A stretch of 64,000 nucleotides of DNA, taken from positions 288,001 through 352,000 of the forward strand of contig CAVPNL010000003.1 of assembly GCA_963706575.1 (NCBI GenBank). The letters run 5' to 3'. A program made the translations under genes and the position numbers. Below the pieces are notes generated by a model. It had not been told where the DNA came from and ran no database searches. It saw only the letters and a list, made by a program, of their open reading frames with translations. Source of the stretch: an uncultured delta proteobacterium. Lineage in GTDB: Bacteria; Desulfobacterota; Desulfobacteria; Desulfobacterales; JAHEIW01. Shown piece after piece: positions 5,215-50,333 of the stretch (position 1 is its first letter; every line of letters starts with the position of its first letter).

Positions 5215-7177
5215 ATGAATATTCGCTTAAATAAGAACAAAATAATTATTTTCATCGTATTAATTTTCGGTGTGATCTGCGGTAGCCTGACGGGCGCCTT
5301 TTTTGCGCTCACCCACGATCTGCCCCAGATCCGCTCGCTGGAAAATTTCGAGCCCGATGCGGTTACCCGCATTTATTCCGCCGACAAAATCTTGCTGACC
5401 GAACTATTCATTGAGAAACGCGAACCCGTGCCCCTGAAAACCATCCCCCGGCTGTTAAGGGCAGCGCTGGTGGCAACCGAAGACCGCAAATTTTATAAAC
5501 ACAGCGGTGTCGACCTGAGGGGCATCACCCGGGCAATCCTCAAGGATATTAAGGCCGGCGAATTCGTTGAAGGCGCAAGCACCATTACCCAGCAGCTGTC
5601 GAAAACGCTTTTTCTAACGCCTCGAAAAACGCTGGTACGCAAAATAAAAGAGGCCATTTTGGCATTTCAACTCGAGCGCCGTTACACCAAAGATGAAATA
5701 TTGGAATTGTACCTCAACCAGGTTTACTTCGGTAGCGGCGCCTACGGCGTGGAATCTGCAGCCAAAATATTTTTTGGTAAATCCGTAAAGGATTTAAGCC
5801 TGGCGCAATGTGCACTGGTAGCCGGTATGCCCAAATCGCCTTCACGCTATTCTCCTCTGGTAAATCCGGATCTGGCCATCAAAAGGCGAAATACCGTACT
5901 AAGACAAATGCGTGACACGGATATTATTTCCGATGCGGCCTATCAACAGGCAGTTAATGAAGCGCTTTATACCGATGACCGTCGATTCAATCAGTCAAAA
6001 GCACCTTATTTTGTCGAATATATTAAACGTTCTCTTGAAGATGAACTGGGATCAACCCGACTGTATAAAGGCGGTTTATCCGTTTATACAACCCTTGATT
6101 ACAGCCTGCAATCAGCGGCCGAAAAGGCAGTGACTGACGGACTCTCAGCGCTGACCCAGCGGATGAAACAGGCGCAAATAGCGGAACCGGATCCCCAGGC
6201 CGCCCTGATATCGATCGATTTAACTTCCGGCGGCATTTTGGCCATGGTGGGCGGCAAAAATTTTAATGACAGCCGTTTTAACCGTGCCTCCATGGCTCTC
6301 CGGCAGCCCGGATCGGCCTTCAAGCCGTTTGTGTATGCCTATGCTATCGAGCAGGGTTTCGCCCAAAATAAAATAATTCTGGATGCACCGGTGGTATATC
6401 GAGGCGCGCAGGACGGCAATGACTGGAAACCTCAAAATTTTTCTTTGGGATATAAAGGCGAAATGACATTGCGCCGTGCACTGACAGTCTCCCAGAATAT
6501 CCCGGCGGTTCGATTGCTGCAAATGCCTAGGACCTGACTCGGTGGCCCAGTTCGCCCATCAACTCGGCATCAAATCACACCTGGCCGGTAATTTGTCACT
6601 GGCCTTGGGCACGTCGGAGATCACTCTCATGGATTTGACATCTGCATATTCTGTATTTCCGAATAAGGGCGAAAAGATTAGACCGTTTGGCGTCCTGGAG
6701 ATTGTCGATCGACAGGGTCGCGTGATCTGGCGGGCCAAATCCCAGAGGAGGCTGGTGATGTCGCGTGCCGGTGCAGCCATTGTGACCAATATGCTGGAAG
6801 GTGTGATCAAGGAAGGTACCGGCAGGCGCGCTCGTATTCTTGGCAGAGCTGTCGCAGGAAAAACCGGAACGACAAATGACTATAAAGATGCTTTGTTCAT
6901 CGGCTTTTCACCGCGTGTGATTGCCGGCGTCTGGGTAGGCCGGGACGCCGGCGGCAGCCTGGGGGGGAAAGAAACCGGGGCCAGAGCCGCTTTACCCATA
7001 TGGATTGACTATATGAAAGTGTCCCTTCCAAATGAGCCGAATCAATACTTCGACATTCCCGACGATGTCAGCCAGATTCGCATGGACCCCATCACCGGTC
7101 TAGCGCAGCCCGTCGATTCAAAGCGATCCGTTGTTGCCTTGTTTAAAAAAGGCACCGAGCCCTCAGATCGTCGATAG
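5215..7177 (+). CDS. mrcA: Penicillin-binding protein 1A (frameshift near 6530)
   Basis: EDRKF, GASTITQQL, RKIKE transglycosylase motifs; SAFK, SQN, KTGT transpeptidase motifs. Confidence 0.9.
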
Positions 7178-7721: not shown

Positions 7722-7854
7722 AAAGTGCCTAAAGTGACTAAAATGAGCTAAAGTGCCTAAAATTTTGGTGTCGCTACGCTCCATCTTTTTTATAAAAATG
7801 ATAGAATGCCTTAACTTTAGGCACTTTAGATCACTTTAGGCATTTTAGGCATTT
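7722..7854. repeat. Family-A tandem-repeat hairpin element, copy A1
   Basis: ~42 bp inverted arms of CTAAA(A/G)TG-type 9-10 nt units; loop shared with A2. Confidence 0.9.
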
Positions 7855-9114: not shown

Positions 9115-9420
9115 TAGAACCCATCTCAAAGATATATATAACGCCCAACGCTACAGTTTTAAATCTATAAAAAGTGCTTACAACACAAAATGAGCTAAAA
9201 TTAAAAATGATCTAAAATGTCTAAAATTATGGTCGAGCTAGCGCAGCACAGGCGTTTGCGCCATGTGGCGCTCCATCTTTTATTATAAAGATGACAGAAT
9301 TCCTCAACTTTAGGCATTTTAGCTCATTTTAGTCATTTTAGGCACTTGTAACTTTCCAGCACCTTTGGAACTTTTTTCTCTGTCTTCCAAGATGAACTGC
9401 TAATTTTGAGATAGCTTTTA
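9115..9420. mobile_element. MITE-like element (TAGAACCCATCTCAAA termini) containing nested family-A copy A2 (9187-9347)
   Basis: Imperfect 17 bp terminal inverted repeat (13/17), same TIR as 16281-16426. Confidence 0.6.
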
Positions 9421-11326: not shown

Positions 11327-11418
11327 GGTTTCAGGTTTCGGGTGTCAGGTGTCAGAATGGATCGAGCTGAAAATCTATCGGATCAGATGCTATACACTAA
11401 AACCTGACACCTGAAACC
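11327..11418. repeat. Family-B heptamer hairpin element (GGTGTCA/GGTTTCA .. CCTGACA/CCTGAAA)
   Basis: Inverted arms of 7-nt units between gpsA and radC. Confidence 0.8.
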
Positions 11419-11453
11419 TTTATTTCAACGAAACGCTTAAAGCGCAACCCGCC

Positions 11454-14948: not shown

Positions 14949-15146
14949 GTTATTCGTTATTGGTTATTGGTCATTATGTAAACGACTCATGTTTCATATG
15001 TCACGTGTCAGAGGACAGAAGACAGATGATTAAAACTGGAAAATGAAGCATTCTATCCGACTTCTGTTTTCTGTTCTCAGTCATCTGTTTACTGACACCT
15101 GACATCTGAAACCTGACACCTCCCACTAGCTTACACCTGACACCTA
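14949..15146. repeat. Composite/nested tandem-repeat hairpin elements upstream of gyrA
   Basis: GTTATT(C/G) arm; family-B arms enclosing GACAGA..TCTG arms. Confidence 0.75.
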
Positions 15147-16938: not shown

Positions 16939-17041
16939 GGGTTCAAGGTTCAACGTTCAGGGTTAAAGGTTAAAGAATCCGATATTGTTATAAAATCTAA
17001 CCGCTGAACCCAGAACCGCGTTATCCAGAACCTCTGAACCC
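16939..17041. repeat. Family-D heptamer hairpin element (GGTTCA .. GAACC)
   Basis: Inverted tandem arms just after the thiolase stop. Confidence 0.75.
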
Positions 17042-17053
17042 TTGACTGCTGCT

Positions 17054-18353
<1,300 letters not shown>

Positions 18354-40854: not shown

Positions 40855-41000
40855 AAATGAGCTAAAATTCAAAATGCCTAAAATGAGCTAAAATTATTGT
40901 CGAGTTCATTTTTCAACGTCTTTGCCAAATTTCTTATGATTCATAAATTTCTCTTTTAAATTTTAGGCATTTTAGATCACTTTAGATCATTTTAGGCATT
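40855..41000. repeat. Family-A copy A3 with a four-helix-bundle 5' remnant
   Basis: Arms 40855-95/40959-41000; loop reads MNHKKFGKDVEK*TRQ* on the minus strand. Confidence 0.9.
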
Positions 41001-41996
41001 TATTCTTTCTGACTTTCTCCCGGCTATTCCCAGAAACAACGCCAGAATAATCAATTCAAAAACGCCGAATCCAATTTTGACTGCGTACGGCATGACCGGT
41101 TCATGATATTGTGAAAAAAAGGCTTCAATAATTCCAGCCCACACCAGCATCAGGGCCACACCGGATATGAGCGTCACCAGATCATTGGATATTTTGCGCA
41201 GCCGCATTCGCAAAGATATCGGTTTGCCCCATCCGATAAGCGCCCCGGCCAGTACAATGCCGGCCTGCCCGGCAAGCAAAATGGCCGGAATTTCAACAGC
41301 CCCGTGTGGCAGCAACCAGCCTAAGAGGAAGGACGTCTCCCCCGCCATCACATAATCGACGGCCACCGCCCCTAAAATGATGCCATTATAAAATAGCATG
41401 ACCAATGTGCCGATCCCCCAGGTCAGACCCAGCGCCAGCGTTAGAATGGCCACTTTGGTATTGTGCGTCATCAAAAATGAAGAAAAGGTAGTTTTGGCGC
41501 CTTTGAGACGATCGGCATTGACGTCTTCTTCCTTTTTTACCCGCTCAGACGGATCCCCCTGTAGATGAGAAAACGGAAGCAGTATCTGTTTTGTATTCGA
41601 ATCCACGATAACCGTAAATCCGCCAAAGGTTGCGCCCACCCCGATCGCCAGCAGGCAGATCCAGAATGCGCGAATATGTTTGCGGAACGTCTGCGGAAAG
41701 GTAGTGAAAAACCAGTGCAACGGCCGGAGCCGGTGAGGCTTTTCGCGGGTTTCATGGATCTCCCCAAAGGCTCTGCCCACCAAGGCTTCAAGATAAAGTC
41801 GGGTGTTCGGCTCAGCAGAAAAAGTCGAAATTTTAGCCAGACCTGCCGAGGCCCGTTGATAAAGATAATGAAAGCGTTCAAGCTGCCCGAGCGTTAGCGT
41901 GACCTCCGGTTTTTTTTCAAGCCGGTCTAAAACCGCTTCCAACTCCGACCAGCAGGGTCGCTCCTCGGTGATGAATTTTGGTAGATCGATTATCAT
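40992..41996 (-). CDS. Stage II sporulation protein M family membrane protein
   Basis: HNTKV, FYNG, PHGAVEIPA, AGIIEAF. Confidence 0.88.
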   Translation of the reverse strand: MIIDLPKFITEERPCWSELEAVLDRLEKKPEVTLTLGQLERFHYLYQRASAGLAKISTFSAEPNTRLYLEALVGRAFGEIHETREKPHRLRPLHWFFTTFPQTFRKHIRAFWICLLAIGVGATFGGFTVIVDSNTKQILLPFSHLQGDPSERVKKEEDVNADRLKGAKTTFSSFLMTHNTKVAILTLALGLTWGIGTLVMLFYNGIILGAVAVDYVMAGETSFLLGWLLPHGAVEIPAILLAGQAGIVLAGALIGWGKPISLRMRLRKISNDLVTLISGVALMLVWAGIIEAFFSQYHEPVMPYAVKIGFGVFELIILALFLGIAGRKSERINA

Positions 41997-42005
41997 ATCG
42001 CTAAT

Positions 42006-42483
42006 AAATGAGCTAAAATTTAAAATGCCTAAAATGATCTAAAATTAAGGAAATATTTTATAGCGAGTATAAATGATTTACTTGCTTCCAATTGATGTAA
42101 AAAGAGCAAGTAGTTCGCTGCATTCATCATAATCGGCCTTTATTTCTTTCCATTTTAACCATTTTACTTCTGTAATTACTTCTAACCAGAATTGAGTTTC
42201 ACTTGACTCGCTTTCACATATTTTTATTTTATTTCTAAAATCCGCTTTGCTTCTTGCTCGATTGGCTTCGCGGTAATTAGCGCCAACTGAAGTTCCGGCT
42301 TTTGTAAGTTGATTTCTAACAACTCTTCCTTCTGGAGTATTGGGTAATTTGGCTGATATCTTAATTATTCTAACAGCAAATTGTCGGGTTCGTTTTTCAA
42401 GGTCTTTGGCAAATTTCTTACGACTCATGGGTTTTCTCTTAATTTTTAGGCATTTTAGCTCATTTTAGTTCATTTTAGGCATT
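42006..42483 (-). mobile_element. Family-A copy A4, full-length, carrying a four-helix-bundle gene
   Basis: Inverted tandem arms 42006-46 / 42441-83 flank the ORF. Confidence 0.8.
42078..42428 (-). CDS. Four-helix-bundle protein (23S rRNA intervening-sequence protein family)
   Basis: QLTKAGTSVGANYREA.RARS.ADF..K..I.E.E..ET.FWL. Confidence 0.92.
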   Translation of the reverse strand: MSRKKFAKDLEKRTRQFAVRIIKISAKLPNTPEGRVVRNQLTKAGTSVGANYREANRARSKADFRNKIKICESESSETQFWLEVITEVKWLKWKEIKADYDECSELLALFTSIGSK

Positions 42484-43864
42484 CTCTAATTATAAAACTT
42501 GTCTCCTCTTCAGACGAAAGATACTGTGAAACCATCTCCGAGCAGAGGTTTTCGGAATTCAACATGGCAAAACCCACACCGCGTCTTTGCAAAACTTTTT
42601 GGGTTTCCTGTATCCGCCGCCATACCATGTGCCCGCCCAGATCGTTGTAAATATCATTAACCGAAGAAACGGATTCAGAGGCAAAAAGCGGTTTCACGAC
42701 CGTGGGCTTGATCATGTTGACCAGCACCACATGGTTTCTTGAAATTAGATCGATGTGCCGTGTAAAACTATCCGCCAGAACCGGATCATCTAAATGGGTC
42801 AAGAAAACCAGCAAGGCCCGTCGACGGATCTTGGTACCGATAAATGTGAACAATTCAGCAAAATCTGGAGAAACCCGGTGCGGTTGCAAGGTGTAAAGCG
42901 CATCCCGGCAAACATCGAAATGCGCTTTGCCCATTTTGGCTTTTAAAAATGCACGTATCTTGTCGTCAAAGGTCAGCAAACCAAACAAATCCCCCTGCCT
43001 TTCCGCGGCCAGCGCCATGATCAGGGCAGCCGTAATAAATCGCTGCAGCACCGTGGTGAATTCGTCAGCATGCTTTTGTTCTTCCTCCCCATGGCTCGAC
43101 AGAGAGTTGCCCTCAGAAGATCTGGCGCTTAATCGCGAGGCATCGATGATGACATAGATTTGCTGGGTCCTCTCGATCTGATAAACTTTTGTAATCGGCA
43201 AGCCTCGCTTGGCGGTCGTCTTCCAGTGAATATCTTCAAAACTGTCACCGGGAAGGTATTCGCGGAGCTGCTCAAAATCCCGCCCTTTACCGATTTGCCG
43301 CTGGGCGTGAATCCCCAGTCCCCTGTTTAAAAAAAGCGCACTTAGATTTTTGCGCTCCTCAAAAAGATTGGGATAAACCCGAATCTCCATGTTAATCCGA
43401 AGCGCCGTGCGGACAGACCAGAATCCCCATAATGATGCGGTCTCCAGATAGCACCAATCAATCGGGTAACGTCCCTGTTTCAGGCCCTTGAGCAACCAGA
43501 CGATAGATGACAACGGATTATCTTCCGGCAGCTCGACGCTGAGCTCCACTGCCGGTGAATAAATTTCTTGCGGGAATGCCAAACCCAATCGAATGCGTTT
43601 GACCGCCCGTTTCTCGTTTTCAATCTGCAGATCAAAATGGCCCTGCCTGCCCTTTGAAATCCGAACAACCTCCGGCAGCATGACGCGTATACCCGCCAGC
43701 CGTCCCCGTGAACGATGAGCATCCATGATCACAACAGCCAGGATAGCCGCCGCCACAACGATGGTGGGCACAACCACAGCGTCAACCACCACCAGCAGCA
43801 GCGTAGCTGGCAGAAGGATCAGCCCTGCAAAAAAAAGAAGGCGGTATGTCGGCACCAATTTCAC
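42470..43864 (-). CDS. DUF58 domain protein (vWA-like)
   Basis: FEQLREYLPGD..IHWK.TA; terminal codons probably frameshifted (true end ~YLSLKRRQVL). Confidence 0.9.
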   Translation of the reverse strand: MKLVPTYRLLFFAGLILLPATLLLVVVDAVVVPTIVVAAAILAVVIMDAHRSRGRLAGIRVMLPEVVRISKGRQGHFDLQIENEKRAVKRIRLGLAFPQEIYSPAVELSVELPEDNPLSSIVWLLKGLKQGRYPIDWCYLETASLWGFWSVRTALRINMEIRVYPNLFEERKNLSALFLNRGLGIHAQRQIGKGRDFEQLREYLPGDSFEDIHWKTTAKRGLPITKVYQIERTQQIYVIIDASRLSARSSEGNSLSSHGEEEQKHADEFTTVLQRFITAALIMALAAERQGDLFGLLTFDDKIRAFLKAKMGKAHFDVCRDALYTLQPHRVSPDFAELFTFIGTKIRRRALLVFLTHLDDPVLADSFTRHIDLISRNHVVLVNMIKPTVVKPLFASESVSSVNDIYNDLGGHMVWRRIQETQKVLQRRGVGFAMLNSENLCSEMVSQYLSSEEETSFIIRECLK

Positions 43865-43936: not shown

Positions 43937-44046
43937 AAATGCCTAAAGTGAACTAAAATGAGCTAAAATGCCTAAAATTAAATAACGACTGAAATCCTTC
44001 CAAAATTTTAGGCACTTTAGGCATTTTAGTCATTTTAGGCACTTTT
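43937..44046. repeat. Family-A copy A5 (minimal loop)
   Basis: Arms 43937-79 / 44003-46. Confidence 0.9.
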
Positions 44047-50202: not shown

Positions 50203-50333
50203 TGGAGAGACGGAGTACTTAAGATTTCGGAATGCAGATTGCGGATTTCGTATTTCGAATGTGCGATAGGTTTGATATTTAAATCTAAAATCCGCAATCT
50301 AAAATCCGCAATTAATTTTGCTCCATTACTCCA
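50203..50333. repeat. Nested hairpin elements (GGAGT/ACTCC outer; GATTTCG/AATCCGC inner 50223-50312)
   Basis: Two sets of inverted tandem arms. Confidence 0.75.

Follow-up and report, generated by a model that had tools for sequence, protein, structure and literature searches.

How did a gene for a small four-helix-bundle protein, packed between inverted arrays of a short tandem word, come to sit at a junction inside an operon of host genes, and what are the many similar arrays elsewhere in the same genome? The cassette lies in a window of 64,000 nucleotides, positions 288001 to 352000 of contig C3 (G000:C3:288001-352000) in the genome that we call G000. We describe the cassette and its protein, its gene-less derivatives, the pairing of the word with one protein clade, and the alleles of the host junction in related genomes, and then weigh the routes by which the element may have spread.

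The cassette, its operon and its protein

The host operon has the order MoxR-DUF58-SpoIIM-RDD, as judged from profile matches of the neighbors, and the four-helix-bundle gene lies on the same strand. All features are given along the transcribed minus strand. The upstream host gene encodes a DUF58 protein (PF01882; 42470-43864). The 5' arm (42441-42483) consists of four to five tandem units CTAAA(A/G)TG-N1-2, and it is followed by a spacer (42429-42440) in which the purine-rich AAGAGAAAA may be a weak ribosome-binding site. Then come the gene itself (42078-42428, 116 amino acids; S23p/TIGR02436/PF05635), a 3' arm with the same word as its reverse complement (42006-42046), and the downstream host gene, for a SpoIIM-like membrane protein (PF01944; 40992-41996), whose stop codon falls within the next arm array. 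A preliminary description of the locus had reported an AT-rich gene co-oriented with its DUF58 and spoIIM-like neighbors, and this is confirmed, the open reading frame having 36% GC compared to 46% for the window. No promoter is evident for the gene itself, and its expression would depend on the transcript of the host operon. No transposase, integrase, or nuclease is encoded in the cassette, which is about 480 bp long, and no clear target duplication was found there; the lack of a transposase and of a clear target duplication had already been noted.

The same description gave the arms as inverted, about 42 bp long, and built of units of 9 to 10 nucleotides. Their places and their units stand, but they do not form a perfect 42-bp repeat, since the best ungapped inverted match between 42006-42046 and 42441-42483 is 22 nucleotides at 95%. 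Folded as RNA, the arms are predicted to join imperfectly over 26 pairs, interrupted by small loops, at -28.2 kcal/mol, an energy equalled or beaten by 156 of 5083 gene-flank pairs of G000. The whole cassette RNA (511 nt) gives a fold z of -1.95, a modest gain over shuffles, and its terminal stem is closed in the predicted fold.

Compared with all of its orthologues, the DUF58 gene contains an additional base near the 3' end (window 42470-42520), so that its frame enters the 5' arm; the orthologues end at the TAA at 42490-42492. The extra base is either a real frameshift or an assembly error. Elsewhere in the window, a penicillin-binding-protein-like gene (5215-7177) and a thiolase-like gene (17054-18341), both named from their translations, appear to be split over two frames, hinting at indel errors in the G000 assembly.

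In profile searches the 116-residue protein matched TIGR02436 with 83.6 bits and PF05635 with 69 bits, and its sequence matched that of PDB entry 2RLD with an E value of 3.6e-18. It is basic, with 23 lysines and arginines against 15 aspartates and glutamates. A single-sequence structure model shows four helices (pLDDT 86) and best matches the S23-family pentamers 2RLD (TM 0.79-0.82) and 2GSC, and by analogy to these the protein would form a pentameric ring. The four-helix-bundle fold has no known catalytic role. The family membership claimed in the preliminary description is thus sound, and the kinship that it saw with Avd, the accessory protein of diversity-generating retroelements (PDB 4DWL, 8UB7), is present in weaker form. 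The two proteins share the fold (TM about 0.7, E 0.05-0.06), a basic character, and pentameric relatives, but they differ in sequence (12% identity), and there is neither a linked reverse transcriptase nor a template/variable repeat pair adjoining the cassette, whose neighbors are the MoxR-operon genes. The Avd pentamer is reported to engage all five of its protomers in binding an RNA stem-loop (10.1101/2023.10.23.563531).

The layout of the cassette recalls the intervening sequences (IVS) found in 23S rRNA, a likeness proposed from the outset and which holds for the architecture. In the IVS of Coxiella, an S23p reading frame lies in a 28-bp stem, its start codon is preceded by tandem heptamers, and RNase III cuts the RNA (PMC4990558). 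The cassette shares several features with the S23p-type IVS that this paper describes for Coxiella burnetii and Leptospira: a terminal stem has the reading frame of a PF05635/TIGR02436 protein in its loop, short repeats stand in tandem ahead of the start codon, the reading frame often decays, and the sizes are similar, 428-444 nt for the IVS and about 480 for the cassette (PMC4990558). Unlike the IVS, however, the cassette sits between protein-coding genes, uses a word of 9 to 10 bases, and is accompanied by about a hundred gene-less copies. A full-text literature search, with subscription papers and supplements outside its scope, returned no published description of such a cassette outside 23S rRNA and no paper mentioning TIGR02436.

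Gene-less copies are cassettes that lost the reading frame

Four more arm pairs without the intact gene had been reported in the window, and all four are present. One of them, at 40855-41001, does have content: on the minus strand at the spoIIM/RDD junction, it retains both arms and the first 14 codons of the gene, 88% identical to the intact gene over 49 nt, and is a deleted second cassette. The other three, recognized by the arm pattern, have no gene. The pair at 43939-44045 encloses a 26-nt loop at the MoxR/DUF58 junction, that at 7722-7851 is a miniature with a common spacer of about 50 nt between convergent genes, and that at 9190-9345 is a miniature with a 79-nt variant of the spacer. 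Further tandem-word arrays, of GGTGTCA, GTTATTG, GGTTCAA, and AATCCGC types, lie in the window at 11327-11419, 14949-15140, 16940-17041, and 50230-50312, several of them as inverted pairs; tandem-word arrays across the genome make up 122 inverted pairs, with the G-richer arm first in 96.

The G000 genome has 270 arrays of CTAAA(A/G)TG-N1-2, 135 of each polarity, where an order-4 Markov copy of it has 3. Grouped into sites, the arrays make 160, with 107 left-then-right pairs, no pair in the right-then-left order, and 53 single arrays, many of which have a decayed partner. The intact gene is present in just one of the 107 paired sites, namely at 42078-42428, which puts gene-less copies ahead by about 100 to 1, and no reading frame other than the four-helix-bundle gene was found between arms of this type in G000. 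Most arms in the simple pairs, 157 of 208, contain four or five cores. With five duplicate-contig sites removed, 79 pairs share one spacer family, about 50 nt long or longer through nested inserts. The miniature copies are mostly 70-95% alike, which speaks against a recent burst. No empty alleles were found within the G000 assembly, where duplicated contigs carry the same elements.

The gene-less copies derive from the cassette through loss of the reading frame. The 3' motif of the miniature spacer is present in 7 of 80 full cassettes elsewhere, and in one cassette, L060, both spacer halves flank the reading frame, so that a miniature is a cassette minus its reading frame. We also considered whether the spacer is a stable DNA minihairpin, for which the known motif is GC-GNA-GC; of the 43 loops, 24 conform to GNA, a mixture that does not support the claim. 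An Rfam search of the sequences gave three weak chance matches and nothing else.

Gene calls made with a simple ORF caller give approximate counts for the settings of these sites. Called genes flank 152 of the sites on both sides; these genes are co-oriented at 117 sites, convergent at 26, and divergent at 9, and divergent gaps are depleted in sites (9/152, compared to 483/3112 of all gaps; chi-square p = 0.003).

REP and BIME elements with their RAYT genes, and the bacterial MITEs, are intergenic hairpins in high copy number, with one coding copy and many noncoding ones, nested in each other and in either orientation. The CTAAA(A/G)TG family shares the high copy number, the single coding copy, the nesting, and the use of both orientations, and its terminal inverted repeats with many dispersed noncoding copies are MITE-like. 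It is unlike them in that the coding copy specifies a four-helix bundle rather than an HUH or DDE transposase, that the arms are tandem arrays, and that there is no clear target duplication. The element is IVS-like in layout and REP- or MITE-like in population structure, and fails each comparison on a defining feature.

Two families of short repeats in other bacteria also bear comparison. The portions available of the two reports describe paired heptamer repeats GGGAATC in Xanthomonas, with inverted pairs in 70 of 186 patterns in X. campestris (PMC4692102), and arrays of the repeat TAACTGA in Beggiatoaceae (PMC4679880). As characterized there, both resemble the arm family as intergenic tandem arrays with about four units preferred and many inverted pairs, rare between divergent genes and near stop codons; the roles proposed for them are as G-quadruplexes or regulator sites (PMC4692102, PMC4679880). 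They differ in having another word, and those portions of the two reports make no tie to a four-helix-bundle gene (PMC4692102, PMC4679880).

A word paired with a protein clade, and changing junctions

The association of arms and gene on which the preliminary description rested extends well beyond G000. None of the three outcomes that it named as telling against its reading was observed: further members of the family have arms, empty sites exist in relatives, and the occurrence of arms goes with the gene. We examined the flanks of the best 80 of 540 confirmed homologues in the genome collection, 64-91% identical to the protein; the closest of them carries the label Desulfobacterales. At least two cores of the word occur near the gene in 77 of these 80, compared to 38 of 872 control windows taken from the same homologue loci. 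On a stricter count both arms are present in 61 of the 80; several misses lie at contig ends, and a few have swapped arms. By phylum label, the word was found in 29 of 31 homologues from Thermodesulfobacteriota, 16 of 16 from Planctomycetota, 11 of 11 from Bacteroidota, 9 of 9 from Myxococcota, and 3 of 4 from Calditrichota, the rest of the best 80 being four phyla with one homologue each and five homologues without a label, for a total of nine phylum labels. The cassettes of this clade occupy many unrelated sites, in about 59 neighbor contexts.

In a tree of 116 proteins, the word accompanies 80 of the 83 members of one clade (SH-aLRT 99) and none of the 33 proteins outside it; this was a quick tree (119 columns, 58 of 113 forks open) of which we use that one branch. 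Homologues outside the clade mostly have inverted arrays of other words, mostly of 7 bases, and so, in G000, do most of the seven further genes of the family. At four-fold sites, the clade members differ from the gene at 42078-42428 by a median of 0.67, which is saturated. Because the word has been kept while silent sites were saturated, something appears to read it, and the simplest candidate is its constant companion, the protein; a mere need for a hairpin would not preserve the letters. Binding of the protein to its own word would also be in keeping with its basic character, the four to five units per arm, and, by analogy, the stem-loop binding of Avd.

In the homologues L073, L107, and L113, the arms stand in swapped order around the gene, compared to the 107 left-right pairs in G000. 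A second protein family, GxxExxY, has the same packaging: three of its four genes (G000:C19:8585, C6:266174, and C6:909823) are framed by their own inverted 9-base arrays, and gene-less arms of GxxExxY type nest within the loops of CTAAA(A/G)TG-family miniatures.

The density of arms also follows the gene within the genus. The median number of pattern matches per Mb is 10.3 where a clade gene is present (7 genomes) and 1.8 where none is (15 genomes; p = 0.002), the genomes compared being related, hence not independent, and 68-97% complete. Some arms occur in 20 of 21 relatives, and at least 13 members of the genus have arms with no clade gene found in their incomplete MAGs. Nine arm-bearing genomes turned up in a phylum sample of 160; one has a clade member, and none was found in the other eight, which are incomplete MAGs. 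One clade member in this sample lies in a genome without a match to the pattern, and its arms are the swapped variant. The occurrence of arms in genomes without a clade gene means that the arms outlast the gene or that another helper exists.

We found no vehicle that carries the gene. The word pattern matches 58 stretches of viral contigs, most of them single arrays; none has the gene within 900 nt, and none has other cargo between arms of this type. Matches from plasmids (30 records) and phages (2 records) are all <60% identical, and none belongs to the clade. Two viral contigs (L153-L156 and L170-L173) have recurrent arm pairs with a 22-nt loop and no gene nearby. The Y1 family, the sole transposase family searched, gave six matches in G000, and the inspected Y1 genes are flanked by other palindromes or by none, not by the CTAAA(A/G)TG word. 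Upstream of one gene, which we take to be mutL-like, two kinds of element occupy one site: a four-helix-bundle cassette at G000:C20:5958 and C6:747710, and a Y1 (RAYT-like) gene with REP-like palindromes at C19:5817.

The DUF58/spoIIM junction was surveyed at 30 DUF58 loci from 61 genomes, and it occurs filled, broken, replaced, and empty. The full gene is present at three loci (G000, G019, and G021), an internally deleted gene at one, and a 5' remnant at one; eight have gene-less arms of the CTAAA(A/G)TG word and seven have other repeat words or their remains. Empty sites, which the preliminary description had looked to as a sign of mobility, are found at six loci, where stop and start codons overlap; two more are near-empty, and two have a different gene downstream. 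In the host tree, G009 and G004, which have empty alleles, branch among relatives with filled ones, G009 grouping with G000 and G005 at 100/100. G005 mirrors G000: its DUF58/spoIIM junction has a remnant, and its next junction has a copy of full length that is interrupted by a premature stop. Decay of the gene thus includes an internal deletion (G006), that premature stop, and remnants (G000, G003, and G005). Filled alleles read TAA(T)...ATGAT in place of the A/GTGA overlap of stop and start in the empty ones, a picture that selection on stop and start codons would produce as well as a target duplication.

The silent divergence of the gene tracks the order of the hosts but is lower than that of its neighbors (G000 to G019, 0.17 compared to 0.37), which could reflect AT-rich codon use or later transfer. 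Because it follows the host order, the gene is probably old at this junction and often lost, rather than freshly hopping. Most simply, an old insertion was followed by a local duplication and by repeated losses, some of them near-precise; separate gains at the junction are possible. Over 400 kb of 3.9 Mb, seven sites are shared with the closest relative: five have arms in both genomes, two have a different repeat element instead, and none of the seven is a clean filled/empty pair with a target duplication. With the word tied to the clade and the junction alleles changing, the gene plus its word form a unit that comes and goes.

Routes of spread and their meaning

To one account of these observations we give about an even chance: a selfish cassette of about 480 bp, whose ring protein likely recognizes a word private to its clade, and which spread as DNA with one intact gene acting in trans. 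The cassette and its roughly 100 gene-less derivatives would move between intergenic sites as DNA with the help of host enzymes, and the protein from the one intact gene would serve the gene-less copies. The proposed DNA step draws on the orientation of the miniatures. Insertion by way of mRNA would give a polarity relative to transcription, and the asymmetric spacer of the gene-less copies lies 27 one way and 27 the other, which favors a DNA-level step; such random orientation could also come from later flipping between the arms. There is no replication-strand bias either, with miniatures divided 21 to 25 relative to GC skew and 31 ambiguous.

The first alternative, which we consider rather unlikely, is a host-domesticated RNA regulon, in which the ring protein binds the tandem word in mRNA and the roughly 100 hairpins are selected as control or stability elements, with mobility secondary. 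Ring-shaped readers of this general kind have a precedent in TRAP, which binds tandem triplet repeats. In its favor, sites are depleted between divergent genes (9/152, compared to 483/3112), and shared sites keep some hairpin even where its type has changed. The protein is well conserved and apparently vertical at the MoxR operon, the self-complementary arms mean that orientation need not matter, and Avd offers an RNA-binding relative (10.1101/2023.10.23.563531). A regulon is harder to reconcile with a gene that is repeatedly broken or lost and arms that persist where the gene was not found, and with target junctions that vary freely between close relatives and include empty alleles. Nor does the sense strand have any advantage in G-U pairs among the 73 co-oriented miniatures (273 compared to 273).

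Less probable again is spread at the RNA level in the manner of an IVS, as the preliminary description had it in part, with RNase III freeing the cassette RNA and a reverse transcriptase in trans, with the protein as an Avd-like helper, copying it into new junctions. The architecture is that of the RNase III-cut Coxiella IVS with its tandem heptamers (PMC4990558), the modeled fold resembles Avd, and G000 has an RNase III gene and one reverse transcriptase, which is group II intron-like by sequence and lies on another contig, not linked to the cassette. Among gene-bearing cassettes there is a weak trend toward better folding of the sense strand (34 compared to 25, p = 0.064, rows not independent; G-U pairs 351 compared to 277), and at 68 of 73 loci the upstream reading frame runs in the same direction. 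Dependence on a host promoter explains this co-orientation equally well, as the gene would be read from the host operon transcript. The miniatures, however, have no polarity to transcription and no sense-strand advantage in folding (34 compared to 39, p = 0.61), and the flanking genes are convergent at 26 sites and divergent at 9. None of 109 homologue loci matches 23S rRNA, and the 23S gene of G000 has no S23p-like insert. Sixteen public RNA runs were found, none with more than 10% of the words, and the eight that were compared hold contigs of related strains, mostly 85-95% alike; the apparent joints in them fall in the arms and are other repeat copies. Processing of the predicted stem in RNA, as a side effect or as a function, is possible.

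That the arms are an independent MITE- or REP-like family moved by an unlinked transposase, with the gene a passenger captured once, is improbable in spite of the gene's presence in one of 107 paired sites, the six Y1 matches, and the nesting of elements in each other's loops as in REP mosaics, because a different word goes with every four-helix-bundle clade examined, so that many separate captures would be needed, the inspected Y1 genes are flanked by other palindromes or none, and no other cargo lies between arms in G000 or the 58 viral-contig matches.

The cassette may be one member of a wider class of selfish elements, an idea that we put forward tentatively and that may well not hold. Such a class would be free of transposases, each clade of ring proteins reading its own tandem word in DNA or RNA, of four to five units and about one per subunit, and mobilizing its cassette together with hundreds of gene-less hairpins. 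The 23S IVS would be one niche of this class, and the unexplained families of 7- to 10-base intergenic repeats would be its miniatures.

The cassette connects two long-open puzzles, the function of the S23p/four-helix-bundle family and the origin of abundant intergenic tandem-repeat hairpins. The pairing of clade and word is directly testable, with a named protein, a named ligand of 9 to 10 bases, and natural noncognate controls in the same genome. If the protein mobilizes copies in trans, this would be a new route by which DNA spreads; if it only binds, the family would be a modular set of sequence-specific readers of nucleic acids.
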